Positions 22,340-48,803 of a DNA stretch of 64,000 nucleotides are shown in pieces. The translations under genes were made by a program, and so were the position numbers. Within the stretch, counting starts at the first letter, position 1, and each line of letters opens with the position of its first letter. Source of the stretch: Planctomycetota bacterium (GTDB lineage: Bacteria; Planctomycetota; Phycisphaerae; UBA1845; UTPLA1); assembly GCA_016712275.1 (NCBI GenBank), contig JADJRI010000009.1:113772-177771 (forward strand), in the 5' to 3' direction. Under the pieces are notes generated by a model. The model saw only the letters and a list, made by a program, of their open reading frames with translations, had not been told where the DNA came from and did no database searches.

Positions 22340-24992
22340 ATGAATGCCGAACGATTGACTGTCCGTTCCCTCGAAGCACTTCAAAACGCGGAGCGTCTGG
22401 CTCAGCAACTGAACCATGCCGAAATCTCCCCGGTTCATCTCCTGTCCGCGCTCGTCAACCCGACGCGGGCGCTGAACTCGCAGGGTGGCGAGAGTGACGA
22501 TTCGCTGGCGGTCCCGCTGCTTCAGAAGGCCGGTGCGTCGGTGCCGCAAATTCGAAGTCTGCTCGAAGCGGACCTGAGCCGACTTCCCAAGGTCAGCGGT
22601 TCGTCCGCGTCGATGTCCCGGGCATTTCAGCAGGTCCTGCAGGACGCGGAAGCCCTGGCGGGCAAGATGAAAGACCAGTACATCTCCGTCGAGCATCTGA
22701 TCCTCGCGCTCGCGGACGTGGCGAGCGACGCGAAGGAAATTCTCTCCGTCAGCGGCGGCCGCAAGGAGGCGCTTCAAGAGGCGCTCAAGCAGCTTCGCGG
22801 CGGCGCGACGGTCACCTCGCAGAATCCGGAGGACACGTTTCAGTCGCTCGAACGATACGGCAAGGATCTTCGTCGCGCTGGCGAGGCAGGGCAAGCTGGA
22901 TCCCGTCATCGGCCGTGACGACGAGGTGCGCCGTGTCATGCAGGTGCTCGCCCGGCGAACAAAAAATAATCCCGTGCTCATCGGCGAGCCGGGCGTCGGC
23001 AAGACCGCCATCGTTGAGGGGCTTGCCCAGCCGCATTCTTGATGGGGATGTTCCCGAGGCGCTGAAGAACAAGCGCGTGGTGGCGCTCGACATGGGCGCG
23101 CTGATCGCCGGGGCGAAGTATCGCGGCGAATTCGAGGAACGGCTCAAGGCGGTGGTGCGCGAGGTCGTCGAGTCGGCCGGGCAGGTAATTCTCTTCATCG
23201 ATGAACTTCACACCGTCGTGGGGGCAGGACGCGCCGAAGGGGCCGTTGACGCAGGCAATCTGCTGAAGCCCGCACTGGCGCGCGGCGAACTGCGCTGCAT
23301 CGGCGCGACCACGCTGGAGGAGTACCGCCAGCACATCGAAAGGACAAGCGCGCTCGAACGGCGCTTTCAGACGGTGTATGTCGGCGAGCCGACTGTGGAG
23401 GACACCATCGCAATTCTTCGCGGCCTCAAGCCGCGCTACGACGCGCACCACGGCGTGCGCATTCAGGACAGTGCGCTCGTCGCGGCCGCCACGCTGTCGC
23501 ATCGCTACATCAGCGGGCGACAGCTTCCTGACAAGGCGATCGACCTGATCGATGAGGCGGCCTCACGACTACGGATTGAAAACGACCCATGCCGGCGGAA
23601 CTGGATGTGCTGCGCCGTCGCCTGGCACAACTGGAAATCGAGCGGGAAGCGCTGAAGAAGGAGCGCGACGACGCAAGTCGCAAACAGCTCAAGCAGACTG
23701 AGAAGGACCTGGCCGACCTTAAGTCGGAGGATGCGGCGCTCACCGCGAAGTGGGAAAACGAAAAGAACGCCATCCTCGCGATCAAGCAGATCCGGGAGCA
23801 GATCGAGGCGAAGCACCTCGCGCTGGAGGAGGCGCGGCGCAAGTACGACTGGGGAACCGCTGCGCAGATTGAGAAGGGTGAAATCCCCGACCTTCAGCGG
23901 CAACTCGTCGACCGCGAGCACAAACTTGCTGAGCTTCACGAAAAGGGGGGCGGACTTCTGCGCGAAGAAGTTACGGCCGAGGAGATCGCTGAAATCGTCA
24001 GCAAATGGACCGGCGTGCCTGTCGCCCGAATGCTGGAAGGGGAGAAGGAAAAGCTTCTCAAGATGGAAGACCGGCTGCACGAGCGCGTCATCGGCCAGGC
24101 CGAAGCGGTCCGGGCTGTGTCGGACGCGGTGCGCCGATCACGCGCGGGACTCGGCGACCCCAACCGGCCGATCGGATCGTTTCTCTTTCTCGGTCCGACC
24201 GGCGTCGGCAAGACCGAACTCTGCAAGGCGCTGGCGCAGTTTCTGTTCGACGACGAGGCGGCGTTTGTGCGCATCGACATGAGCGAATTCATGGAGCAGC
24301 ATAGCGTCGCGCGGCTGATCGGCGCGCCGCCGGGATATGTCGGCTACGAGGAGGGCGGGCGCCTGACCGAGGCGGTTCATCGACGGCCGTACTGCGTGAT
24401 CCTGCTCGACGAGGTTGAGAAGGCGCATCGCGATGTGTTCAACGTGCTCCTGCAGGTGCTCGACGATGGCCGACTGACGGACGGTCACGGGCGGACCGTG
24501 GACTTTCGCAACACGATCATCGCGATGACGAGCAACATCGGCAGCGAGCACATCGCGCGACTGTCGGGTTCGAGTGATGATTCCGCGGGAGCCGGCCGCA
24601 GTGAGCCGGCGGATATCGAGATCGAAATGGCGGTTCGCGAAGAACTGAAGAGGCACTTCCGGCCCGAGTTTTTGAATCGCATCGATGAGACGATCATTTT
24701 CCATCGCCTGTCGCGCGAGGACCTTGTTCGCATCGTGGATGTTCAGACGGATTACCTGCGGCGAAGACTCGCGTCCCGCGATATGACGCTGACGATTACC
24801 CAGCCCGCGAAGGACAAACTCGCCCGCGACGGGTATGACCCGGCGTACGGCGCGCGGCCTTTGAAGCGGCTGATCCAGCAGGAGATCGAGAATCCGCTGG
24901 CGCGGCGCATCCTGGCGGGTGAGTTCGCGGCGGGAGATGGGATCACTGTGTCAACGAACGGCGGCGATGCGTTTCATTTTGAGAAGGGGTGA
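22340..24992 (+). CDS. clpB: Chaperone ClpB (AAA+ disaggregase), split into three ORFs by frameshifts near 22870, 23025 and 23585
   Basis: The Clp N domain is present ([35 protein letters not shown]), followed by NBD1 with the Walker A motif ([16 protein letters not shown]), then [24 protein letters not shown], the M-domain coiled coil, and NBD2 ([28 protein letters not shown], sensor 2). Each break can be repaired by a 1-nt indel, for example CCC vs CCCC at 23585. Confidence 0.85.
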
Positions 24993-25197
24993 CATTAACG
25001 GACATGAGCCTGATCGTGATGCTCCATGTCACGTGAGGATATGCGCATAAGCATGGCGACATCCTGATTCTGCGCGACTGGCATCGGAAGTCAGCATCGC
25101 ATCCTCGCGGAGCCGATGCCTCACGACTGGCATAAGGCCCAATTTCAGAATTGGTAGGTCGGTAGAAAAACAGACCCCGACTACGACTATTCCACAG

Positions 25198-25955
25198 TCA
25201 CGCTCCTGCAGGACGCTCCGAGATTGGTGGCTCGAACAGGTCGATCCACCCTTCACCGCTATTTATGCAAACATCGAGCGCAGCGATGTAGTCTACAATC
25301 CAGGGAAAGCTCGGCTTGATTTCATCAACGTTGTTCGCGAGCCCTTGACGCATGTAAGCCAGCACCGATGGTCCGGGGAGCGGATCGTTCGTCCAGTCCC
25401 GCGGCTCGGGGAGCGAAACCCCAGCCAGGGATGAGATCTCAGTCCTGGCAGTCTGCCAATCGAAACGATCGTGACTCAGATCCAGCGTGTAGGCCAGCGC
25501 CACATGTCGCCTCGCGCAGGATTGTCAAGTTCGAGGAATGCTCTCGCCGCGAATCTGCTCAGGCCGGGCTTGCCCAATTCGGCTTCACAGAGATTCCGTA
25601 CCAAAGCTTGTGCCGCGATCAGACCCTCGTTTTCGATGACTGCGTCTACTCGAAAAGGGAGCGGGTCATGACAAGAAGTTCGATTGGAAAAAATAATGTA
25701 TTCGACCTGCCCAAGCCGGGTCTTGAATTCATCGTCGTACTCACGGCCCGTCATTCGGACAAGAACTCCGTTCAGCACTCCACCCAGTGTGATCGTAACC
25801 TCATTGAAACCAATCACATATTCGGGCCCATCGTACCACCGCAGGAACCATCTCTGTGACCGCTCCAGCGTCCACCCCAGCAGTTCCGCCAGTCGCCTTG
25901 AATACCACGAGCAATAGGACAAGTCCTCGGCCACCGCTATGAAGTTGCGAGTCAT
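25198..25955 (-). CDS. Hypothetical protein (two overlapping ORFs in different frames, likely one frameshifted gene). The first gene of lower-GC island 1.
   Basis: The ORFs 25476..25955 and 25198..25503 overlap by 28 nt, and both look protein-like. I recognise no family. Local GC is visibly lower than the flanks. Confidence 0.35.
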
Positions 25956-26047
25956 AGTTTATTCAACTTCCGCAGTAATCGGGACATTCTGAGTTTTTGA
26001 GATTTTAGAATTTCCTCTTCTTGTCCTCTTGCACTTCATGCCAACGC

Positions 26048-26852
26048 TCAGCCCATTTCTCCATGGCCCGTAACGATAATGCGCTTCTGATTGGCAACTT
26101 TGACCGTTTTCACATACTTGCCATGCCTGACGAGTTCAAATCTCGTTTCGAAATTGAACTCATAGTTCCCAGGATTCAGCGCGACGTCGACAAGATAAGT
26201 CCCTTTCCCTGCCCCGGAACCCGATTTGAACTGATAGTTCAGACCCCTCACATTTAAGGGTTGATTGAGTGACTCGACGGATGCCGAGGCGCCGACGTTG
26301 CAGACTTCGAGGCCGCGATCAGCGCGCGGTTTCTCAAATTCGACCGAGACCCGCAAGGCGTCATTTGTTCTGATTTCCGAGTCGCACCGGAACGCTCCCG
26401 GTGTGATGATCTGGTCGTAATATCGAGCCTGCAGGTCCTGGCGGAAGCTGATTGCTGACGTCCGCTGATTCAAGGAGCGCAATCCAGCCCCTCGTTACAG
26501 GGGCGTCAGTGGGTTGATCCACTTGTTTTTCGAGAGCGAGCAAGAGCAGCGCCTGTGACTCATCGAATGAAAGCTGGCTGGTTGTCAGAAGATCTTCCAG
26601 CTGGCGAATGGCTCTTCGGTCACCGGCTTTTGCATCGTCATACAGAGACGAGACTGGAGCGTCGCCCGTCGCGACCGGAGGATGAGCTTTCTGCTCGCTC
26701 AAGCATCCGGCGGAAGCAAGTGGAATCAAGAGGACTGCACAGAGCGGTAAGGTGAGTGATCGGCCCATGGCTCGTGTGCCTCCTGTCGCTGACTCGCGGG
26801 GACGAACTGTCCTGCCTTTGTAGATCATACAACAACGAAACGCGAATTTCAC
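26048..26852 (-). CDS. Putative lipoprotein, beta-rich, frameshifted near 26380-26480
   Basis: The N-terminus has a signal peptide and lipobox (LLIPLASAGC). The C-terminal half continues in another frame (RTSAISFRQDLQARYYDQIITPGAFRCDSEIR...NYEFNFETRFELVRHGKYVKTVKVANQKRIIV). Confidence 0.4.
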
Positions 26853-27124
26853 ATGCTGCCGCGACCCGGGTCGTTGGCGACCAGCGCTTTCTTGAACGGA
26901 GGGGGAACTTCGCGGGCGGCGGGTAGACTTCCGAAGGCGCTACGGGAGAATGGCGACGTTCTCAATATATCAAGAGTCGAATCTCGGGCTCTTTCCCTAG
27001 TCGTCTGACCACTATTCGTGCCGCGAATTCGTGTGCGAAATTCGAGAGCCTTCATCGCGCGGAATCCCGCGTCGATTTCGAACACGACGCCCGCCGACCC
27101 CGGCGGCACGCCGGGCCCCGCCTG

Positions 27125-28036
27125 CTAAATCCGCTCTCCGCACTCCGGACATCGTGGCTCGACGAGGGATTTGAGGACGTACTGACACCGGCGGCAACGG
27201 GTTTCGTAATCCAGCAGGCTGACTTTTGAAGCGACCCACAACGCAATCGCGACGCCGATCGCAGCGGGAGCGATCGGGGCGAAAAATGGGTATGCTTCCG
27301 AGTCCACAATTCTTGGCATGAGCATTTGCGCGAAGCCGTGCAATCCCGGCGATGCAAGGAACGCGGCTGCCAGTCCCCCTGCGAAGGCCCGCACGATTCT
27401 GCCCCGTCGGACCTTCGCCCGATTCTGATCCGCACGAAAACGCGCATTCTCGAATGTGCCGCCCACTTCAACTGTCTGGAGGCGGTGGTGGGTCTTGATC
27501 ATATCAAGGCACGAATCAAACGATCCCTCCACGATAGCCGCCTGAGGAAGAATGATCGCTCCGGTGTTTGCGGTGAACACAAAAAGGCAATTGCCTTTCT
27601 CAACGATCTCCTTGATTTCATCCCAGGGATAGCGCAACGTCTCGTTGGCGGTCATTGTTGTCACGCCGACGGCATCGACGACCATTTCCGTCGGCCGCCC
27701 GAGGTTGGGAATCGCCCCCTGTTCAATTGCCGATTTAAGTCGTTTTACGTAGTCCTTGCGAATCGAGCCGGACAGTGTGAGAAGAAAGTACACAAAGATA
27801 AGACCGCAGATGAGAATCGCGAACCAACCCTCCTTGTACGCGAGACCGAGCCCGACGAGCGGCACTAGAATCAGGTACTTTCGTGCCCGGCCGATCTGTT
27901 CCCGGATGCGCGGATCGATCTCCGACAGGACTTGCGCTCCTGCGAGTAGCGAGTCGGCATCGAGCTGATAGACGATTCGAACGCCTGTCGTTCCAGATGC
28001 GCCCGTTGATGCGGTGAGATTCGACGCAGGCTCCAT
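27125..28036 (-). CDS. Membrane protein with a YcxB-like (bacterial PH-like) domain, four predicted TM helices and a C-terminal CxxC...CPECG zinc ribbon. Candidate retron effector.
   Basis: TM hairpin 1 is KYLILVPLVGLGLAYKEGWFAILICGLIFVYFLLTL. The YcxB-like core is LRYPWDEIKEIVEKGNCLFVFTANTGAIILPQAAIVEGSFDSCLDMI. TM hairpin 2 is IVRAFAGGLAAAFLA...FFAPIAPAAIGVAIALWVA. The C-terminus is ETRCRRCQYVLKSLVEPRCPECGERI. The gene starts 32 nt downstream of the RT stop on the same strand. Confidence 0.6.
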   Translation of the reverse strand: MEPASNLTASTGASGTTGVRIVYQLDADSLLAGAQVLSEIDPRIREQIGRARKYLILVPLVGLGLAYKEGWFAILICGLIFVYFLLTLSGSIRKDYVKRLKSAIEQGAIPNLGRPTEMVVDAVGVTTMTANETLRYPWDEIKEIVEKGNCLFVFTANTGAIILPQAAIVEGSFDSCLDMIKTHHRLQTVEVGGTFENARFRADQNRAKVRRGRIVRAFAGGLAAAFLASPGLHGFAQMLMPRIVDSEAYPFFAPIAPAAIGVAIALWVASKVSLLDYETRCRRCQYVLKSLVEPRCPECGERI

Positions 28037-28068
28037 GAGTTGATCGCTTTCTAATCCCGAGAGCCTGT

Positions 28069-29385
28069 CTAAGAGACGGCCCGAATTGCCTCAACTAATT
28101 TTCGCCCCCGCTCCGGATTCAGCTGCGCCACATGCGCCGCCCGGCCCAGCAGGTAGGCCCGGAAGTCCGGCCGGTGGTCGCGGTTCTGTGCGTCGAGCCC
28201 GGTCTTTCGCGCGTTGTGGATGATCGCCTTGAGCCGGTCATATTCGTCGCGCGCCACGTTCACTCGTTGGTTCACCACGACGCCCGTCACCTGCTGCCGC
28301 TGGCCGGATCGCATGAATCGGCGCTTCACATAGTTTTCAGAGAAGCCTTCAAGCCGAATGATCATGTGAAGGTGGTCCAGGAATCGCTTCATGCCGCGTT
28401 TGAAACGTTCATCGCCTGAGAATGTCAGATCGTCGGCATATCGGGTGTATTCGGCGTCGAACTTCTTCGCGAGGCCAGTCAGCCGACGGTCGAGTCGAAG
28501 GCAGGCGAGATTCGCGAGTGCGGGACTCGTCGGCGCGCCCTGCACCGCATGTCTGCGAATCCGCTGCATTTCCCATTGACCGTCAAGCCCGCGACTCGCC
28601 TCGCCCAGCTGCGGCGCGTGCGTACAGAGCCGTGCGAGCCAGCGAGAGACTTCGCTGCCGTATCCAAGGTGGCGAAAGACGCCATAGACCTGCTGAATGC
28701 GAATGTGCTCGAAGAAGTTCCTTAGATCAAGATTCACGACGAGCTTCCGCCCGACATGGCCGGCCGCGTTGGTGGCGATCGACCGCGTACGAACGAAGCC
28801 ATGGGCGGCCATGTGAACCGGCGCGCGATCGAGTATCTCCGCTTTGATCTTGCGCTGAATCGCCTTCAGGCGAGGCTTCGGACTGCAAATCACGCGAAGG
28901 CCTGCGCGGCGCTTCTTCACCGTCCATTCGACGTAGTTAGATTTGCCGGGGCGGACACGGCGTTCCGGATTCGCCAACGGGAGTAGCGATTTCAAATCTA
29001 CGCCCAGCCAGCGCAGGATGTCGGCCGTGTCCTTGAGCACCGGTATTCCGAGATCGCCGAGCTTCTGAGCGTTTGACGGCTTCTGAGGAAGCCGCTTCGA
29101 GCCCGGCAGCCAGACGCGCTCGCGGGTGACCCGCTCTCGGAGTTCTCCAACACCGTCGCCTTTGCGTTCGCACCGCCATCGCCGGCCGCCAAGGCTGTCC
29201 CATTTTTCGCTTTCGCTCCCAGCGCGTCGATATGCATAGCGCAGAAAAATCGCGACGCTCAGAAAGACGCCGAGTGGTATGCCGTAGCAAGCCCATGTTG
29301 TTGGTGCGAGTGCCAGCATGATTGGCGGCCCGAAACTCGATCGCGCGCTTTCGAAGCGGTGCGCGGTGTGTGGAGAGAAAAACAA
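28069..29385 (-). CDS. Retron-type reverse transcriptase (Ec86-like)
   Basis: It aligns by eye with Ec86 RT along its whole length: LGDLGIPVLKDTADILRWLGV vs NLGLPVMNNLHDMSKATRI; the retron-specific NAxxH motif (SIATNAAGHVG); motifs 1-2 (LVVNLDLRNFFEHIRIQQVYGVFRHLGY); motif 4 (QGAPTSPALANLACLRLDRRL); the YADDLTFSGD catalytic motif; and the retron VTG motif (GQRQQVTGVVVNQ). The first 22 codons start from TTG, and the first ATG is at 29319. Residues about 25-50 are hydrophobic (ALAPTTWACYGIPLGVFLSVAIFL), so the N-terminal extension may not be translated or may overlap the ncRNA. Confidence 0.8.
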   Translation of the reverse strand: MFFSPHTAHRFESARSSFGPPIMLALAPTTWACYGIPLGVFLSVAIFLRYAYRRAGSESEKWDSLGGRRWRCERKGDGVGELRERVTRERVWLPGSKRLPQKPSNAQKLGDLGIPVLKDTADILRWLGVDLKSLLPLANPERRVRPGKSNYVEWTVKKRRAGLRVICSPKPRLKAIQRKIKAEILDRAPVHMAAHGFVRTRSIATNAAGHVGRKLVVNLDLRNFFEHIRIQQVYGVFRHLGYGSEVSRWLARLCTHAPQLGEASRGLDGQWEMQRIRRHAVQGAPTSPALANLACLRLDRRLTGLAKKFDAEYTRYADDLTFSGDERFKRGMKRFLDHLHMIIRLEGFSENYVKRRFMRSGQRQQVTGVVVNQRVNVARDEYDRLKAIIHNARKTGLDAQNRDHRPDFRAYLLGRAAHVAQLNPERGRKLVEAIRAVS

Positions 29386-29720
29386 GCGCGGGGCGGAGTT
29401 TTACAACGCTCGGTCGTCGCGGCTGACGACGGTCCTCGCGACCGTCGCGGACCGCGACACTTCAGGAACGGCAGCGAAGCGGCTCGCTCGGGGTAACCCC
29501 GAACATCCTCGTAAGAGGACCCTAAAACGCCCGGTCCCGCGCTGAATTGCAGCCTATGAAATCAGGTCGCGCCAGTCAAGCTGAAGGGCGGGTCGCGGCG
29601 TTCGTCGGCGCGGATCGTGCTTCCCGGTCGTTTCCCAGCGTCGCGTCCATCTATCGTCGGCTTCCCCATGCACGGCGCGCGTTCAGCTGGATTGGCGGGG
29701 CAATTGGCCGATATTAGCAT
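29386..29720 (-). ncRNA. Candidate retron msr/msd non-coding RNA region (location inferred; a1/a2 repeats not resolved)
   Basis: This is a non-coding, hairpin-dense stretch upstream of the RT on the same strand. In minus-strand orientation it contains nested perfect stems: gtcgcgg-tc-cgcgac, cgacggtc-gcgag-gaccgtcg, gtcgtc-agccgc-gacgac, tcgggg-tta-ccccga and agggtcctc...gaggaccgt. There is a TAATAT -10-like box near 29705 on the minus strand. Retron ncRNAs normally sit in exactly this position. Confidence 0.3.
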
Positions 29721-29776
29721 GGTGCGATGGCGTCCAGCGCCGAGTCGCCGCAGTCCGCCGCTTTTCGGAGTTCCGC

Positions 29777-30861
29777 ATGTTTCGCAAACGTCACCCGCAG
29801 ATGGGCGCGAGCCCCGGCACGCTGTCGATTCACAGTGATTCTCCGATGCCGTTCGTGCACGTGATCGACTACTCGCCCGAAGAACTTCACGAACATGATG
29901 TTCAGCGGATCGCCGACCTCAAGCCGTTCGTCGAAAGCCCGAGCATGTGCTGGATCGATGTGCAGGGATTCGGCGATGAGAAAATCCTGCGCGAGATCGG
30001 CAATCTCATCGATCTTCACCCGCTCGCTCTGGCGGACGCCATCAACGTGCCGCAGCGGCCCAAGGTGGAGACGTACGGCAAACACCTGCTCTGGATCACA
30101 CAGATGGTGATGCCGCAGGCAGGGCACCGCATCCGCACTGAACAGGTGAGCCTCGTTCTTGGACCGAATTATCTCATTACTTTCCAGGAGCGCTATGGCG
30201 ATGTGCTTGACCCCGTCCGCGAACGCATTCGTGCCGGCAAGGGACTCATGCGAAAGTCCGGCCGGACTATCTCGCCTACGCCGTCATCGACGCTGTCATC
30301 GACGGGTACTACCCGATCATGGAGGACTTCGGCGAGCACCTGGAGGAACTGGAGGACGAGATCGTTGCAAGGCCTTATCCGGAATTGCTCCAGCAGATCC
30401 ACCGCGTGAAGCGGGAGATGCTGGCGCTTCGGCGAGCGGTCTGGCCGCAGCGCGAGGCGATCAATCAGCTCATCCGCGATGATTCGGACTTCGTATGCGA
30501 CTCCGTGAAGACTTATCTCCGCGACGCTTACGACCACTGCATCCAGATCATCGATGTGATCGAGACCTACCGCGAGCTCGTCAGCGGCCTCATGGACGTG
30601 TACCTGTCCAGCGTGGCGAACCGCCAGAATGAGGTAATGAAGGTCCTGACCATCACCGCCACCATTTTCATTCCCCTGACTTTCCTGGCGGGCATCTATG
30701 GCATGAACTTCGACGATATGCCGGAGCTGCATGAGTGGTGGGCCTATCCCGTCGTTCTTGTTTTGATGGGACTCATCTCACTCGGGATGCTGTATTACTT
30801 CCGGCGGAAAGGCTGGCTGGGTCGCGCCGATGCCGGGGATAAAAGCGCCGACGCTGATTGA
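29777..30861 (+). CDS. corA: Magnesium/cobalt transporter CorA, frameshifted near 30250
   Basis: The N-terminal cytoplasmic domain is in the 29777 ORF. The C-terminal part is in the 30319 ORF, with YGMNFDDMPELHEWWAYPVVLVLMGLISLGMLYYFRRKGW (GMN motif plus two TM helices). The correct joining frame gives GLMRKSGPDYLAYAVIDAVIDGYYPIMEDFG. Confidence 0.8.
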
Positions 30862-31639
30862 GTGTCGCAATCGTGGCACTGACGGGATTCTTGCGAACCG
30901 CCCCTCGCCGTGATGGACGCTTAAGTCTTTCGGGGGGAATCGCACACCGTCGATGGAAGGCGAACTGTTGAAATCAGGGTGGCCGGTCTCCTTGTTCGTT
31001 GCCCGCCGATCGGTACGCGAAGCAATTCGGGGCGGCCCGCGGATTTGATGCAACTGGTGTCCAGAATTCATCCCAGTCGATGCCGATTCAATGGTGGCAG
31101 GCACCTGCTGCCTAATTCGCACGGCTCGTCCTGCGTTTGTGATTTCTTAGCTTGGGCAGTCTGCCAATCGGGCTACTTGCCGAGCGGCGGATATGTAAGT
31201 ATTTTAATATTAACGGGTTATCGCTATTTTCTGATCGACATTGGGTGGATTGAGGCCAGCGGCGCATAAGCGGGTTTGGGGAGATGTGCCGCATTGCACG
31301 GGCCTGGCGGCTGATGACTTGCGTGCGACGGCGAGTCATCGAGCGGATCGTTTTACGTCGGACTACTCGACCGCGCGATGACGGACAAGCCAAATGTGAT
31401 TCAATTCCTTGTGTGCAGTGGCACACTGGCGGGCGATCTTAATAAATTCCACATCTTCTATTTTCGCTGAAAAAACAGCGGTTTTTGGGCCGTTCGCTTG
31501 CAATCGGACCTTCCGCTCGGATACATTTAGCATCAGTTGGACAGGAAGGCGGCCCGAGTGCCGCAGTGTCAGGCAAATGACCCTCAGCGAAAAGCGCTGT
31601 CGGGGGGAAGAGAAGAAATTCGGAGAGGAAAAGGTAACT

Positions 31640-32378
31640 ATGGTTCGAAAGATTGCAGGCGCAGTACTCGCACTTGCACTCGTCATCAGCGCGAATGTCG
31701 GCACGGCACTCGCGGATGAGACGAATGTGTTCACGTCGGCGTCCATGTCCCTGACATGGAGTGACAACAATGGGACTTCCGGCGACCACGCTTGGAATTG
31801 GACGGGGACCAGCGGAGGTCCCACCTACGACCCGGCTGACGGACAATGGACGATCCCGTCCACAGGTCTGTTCCAGTGGGATTCGGTCCACTTTGATGCC
31901 GATCCGGTGATTTCGGGTAACTTCGCCGTCACCAATAATACGGCGGTCACTCAGACCTTCACGCTGAACATCTCCCATGCCGACGGTATTTGCCGCCGGT
32001 GCGACGACAATCTTCGGCGGTTCTGCGATCAGCATTAACGATGCGGACATCAGCGGACTGGCGACCTTGGGCACCGCCCCGGGCACGTCAATCTACCGAG
32101 CGAAGGTCGATGGCGCGGTCGTTCATTCGCTCTATGGCCCGGGCTATTCCCTCGCCGCGTCCTTCCCGTTTCCGGTGACGAACAGCGATTCGTTGAGCTA
32201 CGCGTTTCTGCCCGGTCCTGCGGGCGTCGCGATTGACATCGGTATCGACCACACGTTCACGCTGTCGCCCGGCGACCGCGCGACGATCAACAGCACCTTT
32301 GTGATCATCCCCGAACCGGCGACGCTTTCACTGCTCGCCTTCGGCGTTGTGGCGATCATTCGCCGCAAGAGTCGATAA
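31640..32378 (+). CDS. PEP-CTERM sorting-domain secreted protein, frameshifted near 31985
   Basis: There is an RBS (GGAGAGGAAAAGG) and an ATG at 31640, followed by a signal peptide (MVRKIAGAVLALALVISANVGTALA). The C-terminus is the PEP-CTERM motif IIPEPATLSLLAFGVVAIIRRKSR. Confidence 0.7.
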
Positions 32379-41244: not shown

Positions 41245-42855
41245 ATGGACGTCCTGCATAGCAAGCTGAGCAGTTCCGATCCGGTCTTCAAGGAAAACAC
41301 TGACCACATGGCGGGGCTCGTCAAAGACCTGCGTCGTCGCGTCGCCGTCGTGAAGCAGGGGGGCGGCGAGGCGGCGGTCGCCAAGCATCGCGGTCGCGGC
41401 AAGCTCGTCGCGCGCGATCGCATCGACCGGCTGATCGATCAGGACAGCCCCTTTCTTGAATTGAGTCCGCTCGCCGCCAACGACCTGTACGACAACGGCG
41501 CGCCGTCGGCCGGCATGGTCAGCGGTATCGGCCGCGTGCAGGGTCGCGAGTGTGTCATCGTCGCGAACGATGCGACTGTGAAGGGCGGCACCTATTACCC
41601 GATGACGGTGAAGAAGCACCTGCGGGCGCAGGAGATCGCTCGCGAGAATCACCTGCCGTGCATTTACCTGGTCGATTCGGGCGGCGCGTTTCTGCCGATG
41701 CAGGACGAGGTCTTCCCCGATCGCGACCATTTCGGGCGCATCTTCTACAACCAGGCGCAAATGTCGGCGCTCGGTATTCCGCAGATCGCCGTCGTCATGG
41801 GGTCGTGCACCGCGGGTGGGGCGTATGTTCCCGCGATGAGCGACGAGACGGTGATCGTCCGAAACCAGGGGACGATCTTTCTCGGCGGCCCGCCGCTTGT
41901 GAAGGCTGCGACGGGAGAGGAAGTCAGCGCCGAGGATCTGGGCGGCGCGGATGTTCACTGTCGCACCAGCGGCGTGGCGGATCACTATGCGTTGAACGAT
42001 GAAGATGCGCTTGCCATCACACGGAGCATCGTCGCGAATTTCAATACGAAGCCGCGATCACACATCGGCATGACCGCGGCCGAGGAGCCGTTGTACGATC
42101 CGCGCGAAATCTATGGCGTGATCAACAAGGATATTCGCAAGCCATACGATGTACGCGAGGTCATCGCGCGAATCGTGGATGGCAGCCGGCTGCACGAGTT
42201 CAAAGCGCTGTACGGCAACACGCTCGTCACGGGCTTCGCGCACATCTGGGGATATCCCGTCGGCATTGTCGCGAACAACGGTGTGCTCTTCAGTGAGAGT
42301 GCCCAGAAGGCGGCACACTTCATTGAGATGTGCAGCGTGCGGCGGATACCGCTTGTCTTTCTACAGAACATCACCGGGTTCATGGTCGGCCGGAAATATG
42401 AGTCGGGCGGCATCGCGAAGGACGGCGCGAAGATGGTAGCGGCTGTGTCCAACGCGAGCGTGCCCAAGTTCACCGTCATCATCGGCGGCTCCTACGGGGC
42501 GGGGAATTACGGCATGTGCGGCCGGGCGTATCAGCCGCGGTTTCTGTGGATGTGGCCCAACGCGCGGATCAGCGTGATGGGCGGCGAGCAGGCGGCCAAC
42601 GTGCTTCTCACGGTCAAGAAGGACCAGCTCGCGGCGAAGGGTGGCAAGGCGATGACATCCGGCGAGGAGGAGGAGTTCAAGCGGCCCACGCTGGAGAAGT
42701 ATGATGTCGAAGGCAGTGCGTATTACAGCACGGCGCGGCTGTGGGACGACGGCGTCATTGATCCGGCGGACACGCGGATGGTGCTGGGGCTCGGCATCTC
42801 GGCGAGTCTGAATGCGCCGTGGCCTGAGCGGAAAGTCGGCGTGTTCCGCATGTAA
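41245..42855 (+). CDS. Methylcrotonyl-CoA/propionyl-CoA carboxylase beta subunit (carboxyltransferase)
   Basis: A 536-aa intact ORF with carboxyltransferase N and C domains ([28 protein letters not shown]; [19 protein letters not shown]; [18 protein letters not shown]). Confidence 0.85.
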
Positions 42856-43001
42856 GTCCGCCAAATGCCGGAGGGAGCCACTTGGCGAGACGGAGGCTTC
42901 GTGGCGCCGAGTTGCGGGCGTCTGGTGAAGTAGATGCCTACACTCTGGCACTGCGCCACTTCGCGCTAGCTGATCGCTTCTCCTGCTCCTTCGTCGACAG
43001 C

Positions 43002-44810
43002 TTACCCTGCCCTTTCCATATACATTTGATGCAATAATACGAGCGTCCAGAGGTTCTCGAATTCCAGACGGCTCATGTGCGGGAGGCGGCGTTCGAGAGC
43101 TGCTCGATCGACCAGTTCGCCGAAGCCGTCGTCGCTCGCGAATTTCGCGTCGATGACTGCCTTGCAATCGGTCGGCATGGCGAATGGCGGGCGGCGTCCC
43201 TTGATCATTCGGCGAATAGTTTCGGTCATCGGGACTGGAAGGCTCATCGCCAGGCGCTTCAGCCGGTACTTGAGCGAGCGGATCGGGCTCGACATCGGCA
43301 CGCCAAGTCCGGCCTCCACGACGGCGGCAGCCTGGGGCGACACCTTCCTTAGAAAGGCGACGTACAGCGCGTCGCGCGATTTGACGGCGTCGGGAACGCG
43401 CATCGTCCGCTCGAAGATGGAGAAGTAATTGAAGGGCGAAGTCTGCCAGAGGAAGAATCGCGCGCGGTCTTCGCCGGGGAAAAGCCAGTTCATGCCGCGA
43501 TCGTAGCGGCGGAAGTGGACGGCCTTTTGTGCGACGGATTTTTCGGGATAAGAGTTGAGGCGATCGCGAAGCGATGATTCGAGCGCGCCCGGCGGGAGTC
43601 GCATGATGGATTCGGCTTCGCGGACGGGCGTCGCTTTGTTGTGGGGACGCAGAAGGCCTGCAACATATTGATCGATCGTGAGCGATTCCGCAGGGCGAAG
43701 GTCTGGGAAGATGAAGTCGCCGCCGTCGCCGGTGATGTAGATCGCGTCGTCGCCCCAGTCGGAGACGAGCTGTTCGAGAAAGAGGAGCAGCGACCCGTGG
43801 GCGATGGAGTTCGTGCCGGAGAGCGCCCGCAGCAGGAATTGCTCCGCGTCCGGCGACGGCTGGCCGAGGCGGTAGAGCCGCCACGGGATGTTGAGCGCGG
43901 CCGCCAGGGATTCGGCTGCCACGGCATCGGCACTGGCGACGCCGTGGGCATCGAGGTATGTGGCGGCGACGCATGGGATTTTTTCCCGCGCGAAGAGGCC
44001 GGCGACGACGCGCGAATCCTTGCCGCCGCTGAGGCTGAGGATGCGCTTGCCGGGCAGCGCCGGAAGAAGCGAGCGGGCGGCAGTGTTCGGCCCAGAGGCC
44101 CGCGGAGTTCGTCGGCATAGGCGTCGGCGGATGTGCCGGGGGCGTCTTTCTCGTCGAAGTTGGATGGAGTACGTGGTGTGGAGGGCGGCTTTGACCCGGC
44201 TTCCATCGAGCCGGACATCGAACACCGCGCCGCCCGGGGCGTGGTCGATGCCTTCCCAGAAGGTTCGTGCGCCGATGAGATGGCGGAAGACGAGCGCCTG
44301 CGCCCAGGCGAGGCGGTCGAACTGCCTTGCGGCCGAGAGGCGGACGACGACATCGCATTCGCGCGAGATGATGACGCCGGCGTCGCTGCGGTGCCAATAG
44401 AGTGGCAGTCTGGTGAAGGGGTCGGCGAAGACGATGGCGCGCCTCGCCGTGGGGTCGAGCATGGCGACGACATACTCGCCTTCGTTCGCGCGCGTCCAGG
44501 CGGCCAGCCGATCGCGGGGGAGCGTATCGCCCGCGAAGAGGGCATCGGCCAACGCGCGGAGGTCGTCGAGGACGGCGGCGACATCGTCGCGATAGATGCG
44601 GCCTTCGAGGGTGATGGTTCGCGCGCCGGCGGTGATGGTCTGCACGGGGTAGGTTGGCCGACCGGTGTGGCCGACGAAGAGGCCTTCGGCGGTATGGACG
44701 ATCGAGGTTTGATCGCGCGGTGAGAATTTCCGGGCATCGAGGGCGGCGCGGAAGCGGACGGCCGCTTGGGGTGCGTCTGACGGCGTGATCCAGAGCGAAA
44801 GTCCGGGCAT
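43002..44810 (-). CDS. Asparagine synthetase (AsnB)-family amidotransferase
   Basis: A 602-aa ORF with the PP-loop (ILSLSGGKDSRVVAGL) and AsnB C-terminal domain features. The N-terminal glutaminase domain lacks an obvious Cys-1. An Arg-rich linker (RRERRPRHIRRRLCRRTPRAS) may hide a compensated double frameshift. Confidence 0.65.
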   Translation of the reverse strand: MPGLSLWITPSDAPQAAVRFRAALDARKFSPRDQTSIVHTAEGLFVGHTGRPTYPVQTITAGARTITLEGRIYRDDVAAVLDDLRALADALFAGDTLPRDRLAAWTRANEGEYVVAMLDPTARRAIVFADPFTRLPLYWHRSDAGVIISRECDVVVRLSAARQFDRLAWAQALVFRHLIGARTFWEGIDHAPGGAVFDVRLDGSRVKAALHTTYSIQLRRERRPRHIRRRLCRRTPRASGPNTAARSLLPALPGKRILSLSGGKDSRVVAGLFAREKIPCVAATYLDAHGVASADAVAAESLAAALNIPWRLYRLGQPSPDAEQFLLRALSGTNSIAHGSLLLFLEQLVSDWGDDAIYITGDGGDFIFPDLRPAESLTIDQYVAGLLRPHNKATPVREAESIMRLPPGALESSLRDRLNSYPEKSVAQKAVHFRRYDRGMNWLFPGEDRARFFLWQTSPFNYFSIFERTMRVPDAVKSRDALYVAFLRKVSPQAAAVVEAGLGVPMSSPIRSLKYRLKRLAMSLPVPMTETIRRMIKGRRPPFAMPTDCKAVIDAKFASDDGFGELVDRAALERRLPHMSRLEFENLWTLVLLHQMYMERAG

Positions 44811-44849
44811 GCGGGTTCGGTTCCTCCGGGTCGATCATCGGCCAGCGCG

Positions 44850-45522: not shown

Positions 45523-47511
45523 TCAGATCGTGACAAAGCCGATTGCACTTAGATACTCAAACGTGGGATCGTAGAAAGCGTGCTTTCTCGTAGGATCGAC
45601 TGCTTCCCCTTCCGGAATCACGATCACCATCCCTTGGCGGGCTCGGGTCAGCAAGACACGATAGGCATTCTTAAGGTACATTTGGCGCTCTGGCTTCCGA
45701 ATTCGATTCCATCGATCGCCACAGAAGGACCAGTGCTGCCAGCCAGCGTCAGTGTAGCGAAAGTCACCATCCCAAGTGACACACGCCCAGTCAAGTTCGA
45801 GGCCCTGCACCTGAAACTCCGTCGCAACATCTTCCAGATAGTAGGACGACCGCACATCTTCTTTGGCGTTCAGGAACCAGTTGCACGGGTCGATCTTTGT
45901 GCGAACGTCAATCGCGTGAGGCTTCAGCCGTTGGGCCTCAGATGAAACGACGATGCCATATCGCTCGGTGCCACGGGCATGTGTTCTGATCCAGTCCTTA
46001 GCAGCCCGAAGGTCACGCGTTAAGACAATTGGATAATTCGGAGAGACTTGGCTGAGCGTCTGACGTGCGGAATCCGGCTCCAGGTCGAGCAGTTCTTTCA
46101 CCAGCCGTGAGACATTTTCCGCCCCGAAAGCTCCGCATCGAGACCGACAAATGAAGTTCGTCTCTTTTGAAGACGTGCGGTCGCGATTCAATTTTTCGTA
46201 GAACTTCTCCAGCTCCAAATTCGCTGTCTGTGAGGTTTGAGGATAGATAGACCCGCCACTTAGGGAACCGATCGTGGACGGCATTAATCCACTCGCTGAT
46301 CCCTGCCTCACCCCGATTTATCTCCTGGCCGCCACCAACGAGACATACAATAACGGCCCAGTCCAAGTGTCGATCCATACAAGAAACTAGAAACTCGGGC
46401 TCCGAGTATTTGAAGTCGCTACGACCCTTCTTCTGTTGCATGAAGCTCCGGGTCCTTTCGAGCGTCCAAGCCCGTTGCGCTTCGTCAAAGATAGCAACGT
46501 GCTCGATTGGCGCTGACCATCCCTAAGGCATTCATCTCTGAATCTGTGGATGATCTGTATGAACGCTTGAACTTCGCTGTGGACAGTGCCTTTGGTGACC
46601 TTGTTCCCACGCTCCTTTTCGTAGCGAACTTTGTCGCGGGCGAGTGCCTCCCGCAGCACCTTCACCAGGGGATCGTTTCCAGAGAGGAATACGCTGTAGA
46701 GTTCGCTGTCTTTGTTAATGTGCTTCGTCGCGATATTGAGTCCGACGAGGGTCTTTCCAGCGCCTGGAACGCCCGTCACAAAGCAGATAGATTTCTCGCG
46801 GCGGTCTCGCGAGGTGTTGATGATTTCATCAATCGTGCTTGTCGTGAGCTGGAGATTGATCGCGCTGGCGTCGCTGCGGGAAATCTCGGCGACCGAGTGG
46901 CCGTTGTAGAGTGCCATGGCGGCTTCGACGATGGTCGGCGTGGGATGATAGCGTCCATCTTCCCAGACGCGAGTATCGATGGCGCCGCCTTGGGTGAAGT
47001 CGAGCACCTTGCGAATGACATCCGCGAGTGTTTCAGGCGTGCCATGAATTGGCGTAAGTATGTCGTCGTGTGCGCGGATGAGTTCGCCCTGCGCGGGTGC
47101 TCTTCGTGCGCCCGTTGGAATCAAGATCGGGGCGATGGGACGCGTGTGGCTGGTTTCATGAAAGTTCTTCAGGTCTAGTGCGTAGTCCCAGACTTGATCT
47201 GTTGCGTGACTTGTGAACCGTTCTTCGCCGACTTTGAATTCGAGGATGAAGATCACCGGGCCGATGAGTGCGAGTACGTCAATTCGTTTTCCGAGTCGGG
47301 GTATGGAGTACTCGAAATAAACAGAGCCTTGCGCGCGATATGGTTCGAGAATGGGCTTGAGGATTCTGATCTGTTCGAGCCAAGCGGTTGATTGAGTGGA
47401 TTCGAGACTGCTTCCACTGGTTGCGGCGCTGCGGGAGAGTCTCCCGAGGATTTCGTCCTGCGATTGATCCAGGAAGTTGGCGATCGAATCTGAGTAGTAA
47501 GCCCGGTCCAT
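45523..47511 (-). CDS. PD-(D/E)xK nuclease-like N-domain + DUF2075 P-loop NTPase/helicase-like protein, split by two frameshifts
   Basis: The N-terminus has a D...EFK motif ([22 protein letters not shown]). The Walker A is [20 protein letters not shown]. The middle part is in the 46013..46441 ORF ([19 protein letters not shown]), and the C-terminal part in 45523..46311 ends with [21 protein letters not shown] is lower than the genome background. Confidence 0.7.
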
Positions 47512-47828
47512 TCCTGAAATCGCGCTCCGGCAAACGGTTATGTCCTACTTCATTTGAAATAAGTCTGGTATGGTCGATGGAGATTTCTCCGGCCGGCATC
47601 TCGGACGAATCCCAGGATAGGCGAGTGCCCACATCGGTTCGAGCGGCTCACCATCGGCCAGCTGATGATGGCAACCAGGGAACCTTTTCTCCCGGGGAGC
47701 GTAGAGTCGTCGGCGGGGTCGGGCTCGTCGGACGGGGGACCGCCCAAGGTTGCGCCGAGGGATCCGGGCCGGATGGTGTAATGTATTGTTGGGACTGAAG
47801 GGTGGTCTTGCTCTACATGGCACTCGAT

Positions 47829-48240
47829 GGTGACGATTGTTCACCGGCGTGACGCCGGTGCCACAGCGCCGTGGCGGACGCTGCGATTTGGTATATCACA
47901 CGATGTTGGGAGTGCGTGTCGGGCTGGAATCGGGCGTTGGCCTTGCTGGGGAGCATGCCGACGCGAAAGGCCGTCGGCATGGCACACGAGGGTGACGATT
48001 GTTCACCGGCGTGACGCCGGTGCCACAGCGCCGTGGCGGACGCTGCGATTTGGTATGTCACACGATGTTGGGAGTGCGTGTCGGGCTGGAATCGGGCGTT
48101 GGCCTTGCTGGGGAGCATGCCGACGCGGAAGGCCATCGGCATGGCACACGAGGGTGACGATTGTTCACCGGCGGGACGCCGGTGCCACAGCGCCGTGGCG
48201 GACGCTGCTGGACGCCGATGCCCCAGCGCCATGACGGACG
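47829..48240. repeat. Tandem repeat array: 162-bp unit x 2.3 copies (about 98% identical) plus an adjacent diverged partial unit
   Basis: Units start at 47829, 47991 and 48153. Each unit contains four perfect hairpins: catgccgacg-cgaaaggc-cgtcggcatg, ggtga-cgattgt-tcacc, ccggcg-tga-cgccgg and gccac-agcgcc-gtggc. A diverged copy of the 50-nt sub-unit follows at 48200-48250. Confidence 0.85.
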
Positions 48241-48299
48241 GTGTGCTTTGGCATGTCACCCGACAGGTACGACTGTTTGGCGCGGAGGATCGGCTGCGG

Positions 48300-48803
48300 A
48301 TGGACAGGCTGAAGCGACGGCGGACGGTGCTGTGGATTCTCGGGGTGGTGTTGTTGCTGCCGCTCGTGCCGTTGATGTTCATCGGATTGCAAATCGGTCA
48401 GCCGCGTCTTTTTCTCATCATTGCAGGCTGGCTGCTTCTGAATGGGCTGATCGGTTATGTCGGCGGCCGTCGGGGGAGGCTTGCGATTGCCGTGCTCGGT
48501 CCGATGGCGCTGGTCGCAGCGGGACTGATCTACACCAGCCTTACAAATCCCTATGGCGGGCTTCGCAGCGCGCCGCCGGGAACCTATCCAGAGTGGTGGG
48601 GCCTCGCGATCATCATACCCATGGCAACTGTCGCTTTCGGCATTTCATTCGTGATGGCGGCGATGGGCATTCGGATTGTGGAGGAGCGCGGCCGATGCAG
48701 GTCGTGTGATTACCTGTTGAAAGGCCTGGCGGAGCCGAGGTGCCCTGAATGTGGCACTGATTTTGATCCGACGGAGGTTGAAGCGGGCGGGGCCGAGGCG
48801 TGA
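48300..48803 (+). CDS. Four-TM membrane protein with a C-terminal CxxC...CPECG zinc ribbon (paralogous C-terminus to the 27125..28036 gene)
   Basis: Begins at the internal Met (MDRLKRRRTVLWILGVVLLLPLVPLMFIGL...). The C-terminus is RGRCRSCDYLLKGLAEPRCPECGTDF. The upstream part of the listed ORF lies inside the tandem repeat, so it is unlikely to be coding. Confidence 0.55.
   Translation: MDRLKRRRTVLWILGVVLLLPLVPLMFIGLQIGQPRLFLIIAGWLLLNGLIGYVGGRRGRLAIAVLGPMALVAAGLIYTSLTNPYGGLRSAPPGTYPEWWGLAIIIPMATVAFGISFVMAAMGIRIVEERGRCRSCDYLLKGLAEPRCPECGTDFDPTEVEAGGAEA

Follow-up and report, generated by a model that had tools for sequence, protein, structure and literature searches.

A likely stand-alone-type retron with a predicted membrane-tethered reverse transcriptase and a lineage-specific YcxB-type neighbor in a member of the Planctomycetota

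The window analyzed here is a 64,000-nucleotide (nt) stretch of a Planctomycetota bacterium (assembly GCA_016712275.1, contig JADJRI010000009.1, positions 113,772 to 177,771 of the forward strand). Between corA and clpB, its minus strand carries a non-coding RNA (ncRNA, 29383-29545), a reverse transcriptase (RT) gene (28069-29319, 416 amino acids, aa) and, downstream of these, a YcxB-type gene (27125-28036, 303 aa). The core element, ncRNA plus RT, is very likely a genuine retron. As a whole, the locus is probably best explained as a retron of the stand-alone type, with a membrane-tethered RT and with the YcxB gene as a lineage-specific add-on.

The RT gene starts at the ATG at 29319 (MLALAPTTW...), in agreement with the NCBI annotation and with all homologues. 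A first-pass annotation, made from the sequence alone, listed the RT and YcxB genes as two minus-strand open reading frames (ORFs). Both exist, but the RT does not begin at 29385 as given there; that TTG lies inside repeat a2 of the ncRNA and is backed by no homologue. The annotation also pointed to the motifs NAxxH, YADD, and VTG. All three are invariant in an alignment of 19 homologues, with NAxxH at N206/A207/H210 and VTG at V366-G368. Region X (NAxxH) and region Y (VTG) form the definition of a retron RT in Mestre et al. 2020.

The RT matches the Pfam family RVT_1 (3e-19). In a profile search against the retron RTs of PADLOC, retron models lead: RT_other (3.5e-118, 393.8 bits), RT_outgroup (8.5e-113, 375.6 bits), and RT_XIII (1.3e-110, 368.6 bits), with the other retron types at 1e-76 or weaker. 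The retron models of NCBIfam match under their curated cut-offs, and its group II intron RT (2.8e-9) and Drt2 (6e-8) models are both far under theirs. All sequence matches in the PDB are retron RTs, the best being Ec86 (3.7e-35). The AlphaFold (AF2) model of the protein has a mean predicted local distance difference test score (pLDDT) of 82 and a predicted template-modeling score (pTM) of 0.72. In a Foldseek search with this model, retron RTs take the top 18 places and are followed by a group II intron RT (2e-9), then by DRT2 and AbiK. Ec86 leads these matches as well (E = 2.7e-21, target-normalized TM-score 0.76-0.78, 28% identity) and is thus the closest solved structure by both sequence and fold, which bears out the earlier description of the RT as Ec86-like. 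Retron models, PDB entries, and folds lead throughout; therefore, the RT does not cluster with the RTs of group II introns, diversity-generating retroelements (DGRs), or the Abi and UG groups.

The ncRNA is located directly upstream of the RT and takes up ~163 nt of a 457-nt intergenic region (29383-29545, within a modeled stretch of 29380-29546). Hairpin-dense DNA of about 330 nt had been proposed as the msr/msd region. The DNA is indeed structured, but the ncRNA is confined to these ~163 nt. The regions upstream of the RT were aligned for 10 loci of the close clade, with RT identities of 50-73%. All 10 share a conserved block of ~165 nt, whose mean column identity of 72% is above that of the protein. 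Folded as a single sequence, the ncRNA has a minimum free energy of -87.1 kcal/mol (z = -4.4). RNAalifold assigns 52 pairs, and compensatory changes are found in 22 of them. Pairing is kept in 92.1% of alignment cells, compared with 37-47% when the partners are slid, and the 22 pairs with double changes compare with 6-12 in the slid controls. None of 500 shuffles matched the ncRNA on any of five measures. When 80 distant loci were searched with a covariance model (R1) made from the 10 sequences, ~48 had a same-strand match immediately upstream of the RT. In these matches, the a1/a2 repeats still covary, an AG is kept where the stem ends, and the P2 hairpin and an msd hairpin are retained. A search of 25000-31500 against Rfam (E up to 10) returned no family for the ncRNA; the sole match was a chance Chloroflexi-1 hit within the RT gene.

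The RNA is closed by an inverted repeat. Repeat a1 (29523-29543, minus strand) forms the 5' arm of the closing stem and reads AGCGCGGG-a-CCGG-gc-GUUUUA. Repeat a2 (29385-29403, minus strand) forms the 3' arm, reads UAAAAC-uc-CGCC-CCGCGCU, and is followed by a U-rich tract. Helix 1 of the a1/a2 stem has double changes in 6 of 10 pairs, and helices 1 and 2 pair in 98-100% of cells. The candidate branching G is located at 29522 (minus strand), which is position 25 of the modeled RNA. This unpaired residue immediately follows the GUUUUA arm, where the a1/a2 stem ends on its inner side, and faces G143 (29404); both are invariant in 10 of 10 loci. According to Mestre et al. 2020, "two opposing G residues" are a hallmark of canonical msr-msd transcripts.

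Two msr hairpins, P1 and P2, follow on the minus strand (29486-29520), and both contain compensatory changes. P1 (29520-29505) is GUCCUC-UUAC-GAGGAU. P2 (29504-29486) is GUUCGGGG-UUA-CCCCGAGC, and the whole hairpin, CGGGGUUACCCCG, is a signature of the lineage. Of the 175 fetched loci, 125 have a single copy of its 11-mer, GGGGNTACCCC, upstream of the RT, and in only three of these 125 is it not on the RT strand. The 11-mer lies at a fixed distance from the RT across Planctomycetota, Acidobacteriota, Actinomycetota, Proteobacteria, and Myxococcota and is a simple marker of the superclade.

A linker separates P2 from the msd stem-loop (29416-29458, minus strand, 43 nt), which varies in sequence and is kept in structure. 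Double changes are observed in 8 of 8 pairs of its helix 7 and in 3 of 5 pairs of helix 8. The segment GAGCGUUG lies between the msd hairpin and a2 in the 5'-to-3' order of the ncRNA. Copied into DNA, the msd is predicted to form a hairpin (-20.2 kcal/mol, z = -2.2). With a template running from G143 (29404) back to ~29465, the multicopy single-stranded DNA (msDNA) would be ~60-65 nt long. The a1/a2 repeats, the branching G, and the msd stem for which a scan had been proposed are thus all found at the level of sequence. Upstream, 7 nt before a1, is a promoter-like site (29551-29579, minus strand) with TTGACT (29579-29574), a 17-nt spacer, and TAGGCT (29556-29551). This -35/-10-like pair is kept at the same position in the 10-locus alignment and scores under the threshold of the consensus scan; it is the putative promoter of the cassette. 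A 52-aa ORF at 29562-29720 is unsupported.

The YcxB-type gene begins 32 nt downstream of the RT on the same strand. The first-pass annotation described its product as a four-transmembrane (TM) protein with a YcxB-like domain and a zinc ribbon, and each of these parts is recovered. The protein matches Pfam YcxB (PF14317) over residues 124-171 with 35.4 bits, above the gathering score of 23.3 (9.1e-9). Hydropathy and the structure model place hydrophobic segments 1 and 2 at residues ~54-92 and segments 3 and 4 at residues ~217-272. Between these pairs is a domain resembling the pleckstrin homology (PH) fold (27467-27694, minus strand, residues ~115-190), which the AF2 model builds as a beta-sandwich. 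The model has a pLDDT of 68 overall, and the sandwich at residues 115-190 is confident (pLDDT 74-86). Fold matches to the sandwich are weak (E at least 0.01) yet consistently PH-like. An apparent TM segment at residue 151 in the hydropathy profile was rejected, as it lies in the PH-like beta-sheet. The C-terminus is made up of a zinc ribbon, CxxC-x11-CPEC (27137-27196, minus strand, residues 281-300). The ribbon sequence DYETRCRxCQYxLKSLVEPRCPECGERI is invariant in three homologues that are ~33% identical overall and nearly so in a fourth.

The two halves of the protein have separate relatives. Those of residues 20-185 are ordinary stand-alone YcxB proteins (170-185 aa), which align end to end; those of residues 213-304 are abundant small proteins (57-110 aa) with TM segments and a zinc ribbon. 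Either half is common alone. The full architecture was found in 7 of 1.84 billion representatives by exhaustive search. A word-indexed search had given four clusters, to which the exhaustive search added three full-length members; the genomic context is known for four. No PADLOC model matches the protein, and text searches returned no link between retrons and YcxB. In the window, a 256-aa ORF on the plus strand (48033-48803) has only the C-terminal tail in common with the YcxB-type protein, with two TM segments and RCxxC...RCPECG (35% identity over 101 aa). The 5' part of this ORF overlaps a 162-nt tandem repeat (47816-48208; 2.4 copies, 97% identical).

The distribution of the YcxB gene bears on its role. 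No terminator-like site lies between the stop of the RT (28069) and the ATG of YcxB (28036), and in a close relative, L001, the two genes overlap by 23 nt. Together, these features suggest that YcxB is probably co-transcribed with the RT. Close-clade loci were reached through exact-protein look-ups; among the matches listed by scans of genome and metagenome collections, most were relatives with 39-49% identity, and L070 was the one from the close clade. A co-directional partner is missing in 9 of the 11 distinct close-clade RT loci, and YcxB is observed only in the window and in L001/L002. Eight of the nine have no co-directional downstream gene (L086, L088, L089, L090, L171, L172, L173, L174), and L070 has only an unmatched 136-aa ORF. 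In L174, which has the closest RT (73% identity), the frame is again corA-RT-clpB, with a convergent clpB 16 nt beyond the RT. L086 (70% RT identity) likewise has corA, RT, and clpB with nothing between. L088, L089, L090, L171, L172, and L173 are solo RTs in other contexts. For 148 RT loci, 900 nt or more of downstream sequence was available; YcxB adjoins the RT in none of them but the window and L001/L002, and a second membrane-protein family does so in 13. Conversely, among the four YcxB-ribbon homologues whose context is known, P0122 and P0124 lie in neighborhoods that lack an RT.

Comparison of the window with L001 reveals a sharp difference between the element and its surroundings. ClpB is 98% and CorA 93% identical, and the flanking DNA is 85-92% identical. 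The RT is only 65% identical (34% in its N-terminal extension), YcxB is 34% identical, and the msd hairpin differs. The L001 YcxB is nearer to the homologue P0122, which has no RT nearby, than to the window copy. As the flanks are conserved, the RT, msd, and YcxB have diverged, and RTs of more distant genomes are more alike, the msd-RT-YcxB segment appears to act as a fast-evolving or exchanged cassette.

A second, uncharacterized family of membrane proteins (225-290 aa, motifs ELEKDLEQWFRG, MPDQELF, and QYLIIGLVTSRD) adjoins the RT in 13 Planctomycetaceae-type loci. It is downstream of the RT on the same strand in L007, L008, L009, L012, L014, L016, L024, L025, L031, L047, L094, and L095, and upstream in L019. 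The family has no Pfam or PADLOC match. It was considered as a remote YcxB homologue and rejected (hhalign probability 0.5%, no Pfam match). These proteins are candidate retron partners in their own right. Since the sister clade carries an unrelated membrane protein beside its RT, membrane partners appear to have been recruited repeatedly in the superclade.

The RT possesses a hydrophobic N-terminal extension, which the earlier annotation had noticed and had not recognized from described retrons. A TM-like helix (29242-29298, minus strand) spans residues ~8-26 and is followed by basic residues. Its best 19-residue stretch has a mean Kyte-Doolittle hydropathy of 1.81. At the N-terminus of 27 of 29 full-length close-clade RTs, ~19-23 hydrophobic residues are followed by arginines. 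The AF2 model has a confident helix at residues 6-39 and a low-confidence linker at residues 32-45, after which the extension packs on the RT core. The helix may tether the RT to the inner membrane. Since basic residues follow it, the catalytic domain would, by the positive-inside rule, face the cytoplasm. Text searches turned up no earlier account of a conserved membrane anchor on a retron RT. In the RTs of the Planctomycetaceae sister group (P0042-P0120), a conserved amphipathic segment, MGLxxFLxRLFG, is present in place of the TM helix and may be an alternative membrane-targeting N-terminus.

The RT is found in a corA...clpB frame in the window and in three other genomes (L001, L086, L174). 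Because this frame recurs, the RT and ncRNA are read from their context as a vertically inherited resident between corA and clpB. A lower-GC insertion had been proposed at this position. The GC content of the RT (0.614) and of the ncRNA (0.653) is instead above the window mean of 0.602, and a low-GC island was ruled out for both. Values below the mean are observed for YcxB (0.575) and the next genes beyond it (0.55). An anti-phage defense island, expected by the same annotation, is likewise not what is found: the RT and ncRNA appear vertically inherited with normal GC, and PADLOC and gene-family matches around the locus include no defense gene adjoining the RT. The nearest defense-type gene, a split PDC-S41/Schlafen-type helicase, is 16-18 kb from the retron. 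Between YcxB and clpB is a frameshift-split lipoprotein gene, 83-86% identical to its L001 copy. The lipoprotein gene is kept and the ~1 kb beyond it is dissimilar to L001; therefore, a variable part is located downstream of the RT.

The closest described group is clade 11, which contains stand-alone (msr-msd)-RT cassettes with two ncRNA families (Mestre et al. 2020). PADLOC RT_other probably corresponds to this clade, in view of its distribution, its lack of partners, and a signature hairpin that is common to strong RT_other members and not found in L080. The window has RT_other as its best model and, like the clade 11 cassettes, an ncRNA that immediately precedes the RT; most loci of its lineage are without a recurrent partner. 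The P2 signature hairpin of the window is common to strong RT_other members such as L077 (547 bits). Relatives of the RT are found in Acidobacteria, Actinobacteria, and Proteobacteria, which agrees with the reported range of clade 11-A. On RT_other, those from Acidobacteria, Paracoccaceae, and Pyxidicoccus score 490-547 bits, compared with 311-332 on RT_XIII. The Planctomycetaceae RTs are intermediate, and one Vitiosangium locus (L080) is best on RT_XIII. The window differs from clade 11 in its origin in Planctomycetota, its near-equal RT_XIII score, the N-terminal TM helix of the RT, and the YcxB-ribbon gene downstream.

Type XIII (clade 10) includes Mx162, Mx65, Ne144, and Sa163. Its defining partner is a WH-SWIM zinc-finger protein (cluster 114), in most cases joined by a HEAT/ARM protein (cluster 216). 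Members are reported in Planctomycetota and are reported to be vertically inherited in a fixed chromosomal frame. The window resembles this type in its closely related RT (1.3e-110 on RT_XIII), in the N-terminal extension before the RT core, and in vertical inheritance in a fixed frame. It differs in that RT_XIII is not its best model. L080, the sole fetched locus for which RT_XIII is best, also lacks the signature hairpin of the window lineage. No WH-SWIM or HEAT/ARM partner was found when PADLOC and Pfam were run on the ORFs that separate the RT from clpB and on other window ORFs. A PADLOC scan of the L080 neighbors, intended as a type XIII positive control, gave no matches and was uninformative.

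Type IV (Retron-Eco6/Ec48, with a 2TM effector) has the same order of ncRNA, RT, and an immediately downstream membrane protein. Its RT belongs to clade 3, and its partner, from cluster 826, has two TM segments and a signal peptide. The 25 best PADLOC matches of the window RT do not include the type IV model. The neighbor in the window is instead a four-TM YcxB/PH-like/zinc-ribbon fusion, which has no PADLOC match and is found in a single lineage. Retron-Eco1 (Ec86) is similar in the fold and sequence of its RT. Ec86 belongs to RT clade 9, is without the N-terminal TM helix or the ~85-residue extension, and has as its effector a nucleoside deoxyribosyltransferase-like protein (type II-A3), unlike the neighbor gene in the window. 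The stem...UUAG context of the branching G is, we presume, common to the window RNA and Ec86. Text searches returned no "type XIV" retron, and the retron census paper does not cover the clades considered here.

Three other explanations of the locus were weighed. The RT could be a group II intron, DGR, or Abi/UG/DRT enzyme beside an unrelated leader or riboswitch. The RNA does lack an Rfam family and the NCBIfam retron models do stay under their cut-offs, yet retron hidden Markov models at 1e-110 to 1e-118 stand against 3e-9 for group II and 6e-8 for Drt2. The 18 top fold matches, the NAxxH and VTG motifs, and the canonical order and position of covarying a1/a2, opposed invariant Gs, msr hairpins, and msd hairpin leave this explanation very improbable. 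A quite different proposal is a tripartite retron whose dedicated effector, the YcxB/four-TM/zinc-ribbon protein, is restrained at the membrane by the RT-msDNA complex. Phage interference with the msDNA would free it, and membrane damage would lead to abortive infection, as in type IV. The two genes are indeed close (same strand, 32-nt gap, no terminator, overlap in L001), and type IV partners are likewise just downstream of or overlapping the RT (Mestre et al. 2020). However, the window and L001/L002 are close relatives and so represent one evolutionary co-occurrence, and L174 and L086, which have the most similar RTs and share the frame, are without YcxB, as are 9 of 11 close-clade loci overall. 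Both proteins are predicted to be membrane-associated, and msd, RT, and YcxB appear to change as one fast-evolving or exchanged cassette between the window and L001. Against this, the stretch from the RT to clpB is wholly variable, so the co-divergence may merely reflect a variable spot, and P0122 and P0124 (two of the four homologues with known context) have no nearby RT. The sister clade independently has another conserved membrane protein right after the RT at 12 loci, but YcxB has no homology to that partner (hhalign probability 0.5%) and no PADLOC match. A tripartite system of this kind is a tentative reading with the odds against it, and that YcxB is a true accessory or effector in any form is only slightly less doubtful. 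The part of the first-pass annotation that described a retron module holds for the RT and the msr-msd-like ncRNA; the membrane effector is not established, and in the close clade no locus other than the window and L001/L002 pairs YcxB with the RT.

A third possibility is that the N-terminal TM segment of the RT is itself a built-in effector or localization module of an "orphan" retron, with YcxB as an unrelated neighbor in a variable spot. The TM-like helix is present in 27 of 29 close-clade RTs, with amphipathic MGLxxFLxRLFG in its place in the sister group, and a partner gene is missing at most loci; a single helix would nevertheless be a minimal effector and could equally be a membrane tether only. 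RT-fused effector domains are known in types I-C, VII-A1, XI, and XII, but all of these fusions are C-terminal. This explanation is unlikely. Equally unlikely is a related proposal in which the helix is the effector of the orphan lineage, alone or here with the co-diverging YcxB/PH-like/zinc-ribbon protein, and in which loss or modification of the msDNA would cause membrane damage. If true, it would account for the partner-less retrons of Planctomycetota, Acidobacteria, and relatives. Preferred over these is the stand-alone-type retron with a membrane-tethered RT, in which the YcxB gene is probably a lineage-specific add-on that is unneeded for basic retron function. Several points weigh against this preference. 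Co-divergence of YcxB with the RT and msd in very close genomes is easier to explain by a functional link than by a passenger gene. That the RT helix inserts into the membrane is a prediction from hydropathy and the structure model only. The margin between RT_other and RT_XIII is small (394 versus 369 bits), so the clade placement is provisional, and the equation of RT_other with clade 11 is our own, drawn from taxonomic distribution and missing partners.

For the stand-alone-type retron, the following mechanism is proposed. A promoter just upstream of a1 would drive one transcript containing the ncRNA (29383-29545), the RT (28069-29319), and probably YcxB. The ncRNA would fold by a1-a2 pairing, and the RT would recognize the msr, most likely via the near-invariant CGGGGUUACCCCG hairpin. 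Priming from the 2'-OH of the G at 29522, the RT would copy the msd hairpin from 29404, opposite this G, into a branched msDNA of ~60-65 nt. The N-terminal helix would tether the RT to the inner membrane with the catalytic domain in the cytoplasm. If the RT is membrane-tethered, the RT-msDNA complex would therefore sit at the membrane.

How the abundant stand-alone or "orphan" retrons act without an effector is an open question that was left unresolved in Mestre et al. 2020. The mostly stand-alone kind of retron seen here is known; it is set apart by the conserved, predicted membrane anchor of the RT and by the rare YcxB/zinc-ribbon neighbor, confined to one lineage. A membrane anchor on the RT is a testable hypothesis for the site and mode of action of stand-alone retrons. 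Very close genomes have the YcxB gene (window, L001) or lack it (L174, L086) in the same frame, which makes the effector question directly testable. The locus also supplies a well-defined ncRNA with strong covariation and a signature hairpin that extends over 125 of 175 fetched loci in several phyla. The compact, conserved msr and the short, freely variable msd could be of interest for building retron tools.

The surroundings of the retron include several further features. Downstream, a ~1-kb region between the lipoprotein gene and clpB (24993-25982) has a GC content of 0.55 and no similarity to L001. L001 has a different 179-aa gene at this place, and the remaining locus is 85-92% identical. 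The ORFs of this small variable spot in the window have no family match.

Several neighboring genes are split by frameshifts. These are clpB (22340-24992, three ORFs), corA (29777-30861, two ORFs), the 239-aa lipoprotein gene (26048-26852, two ORFs), and the PDC-S41 gene (45523-47511, two ORFs). All four are unsplit in relatives, so assembly indel errors are likelier than pseudogenes. The RT and YcxB ORFs are unbroken, unlike these frameshifted neighbors.

PDC-S41 (45523-47511, minus strand) is a Schlafen group 3/DUF2075-type helicase and a candidate defense gene. Its two halves match PADLOC at 5.7e-122 and 7.7e-93. An 825-aa ORF (42361-44838) with low GC at third codon positions (GC3) adjoins it and has no Pfam or PADLOC match. 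Finally, between corA and an HMGL-like gene, the plus strand encodes a small protein (31977-32378) with a PEP-CTERM-like C-terminal signal, IIPEPATLSLLAFGVVAIIRRKSR, recognized by eye.

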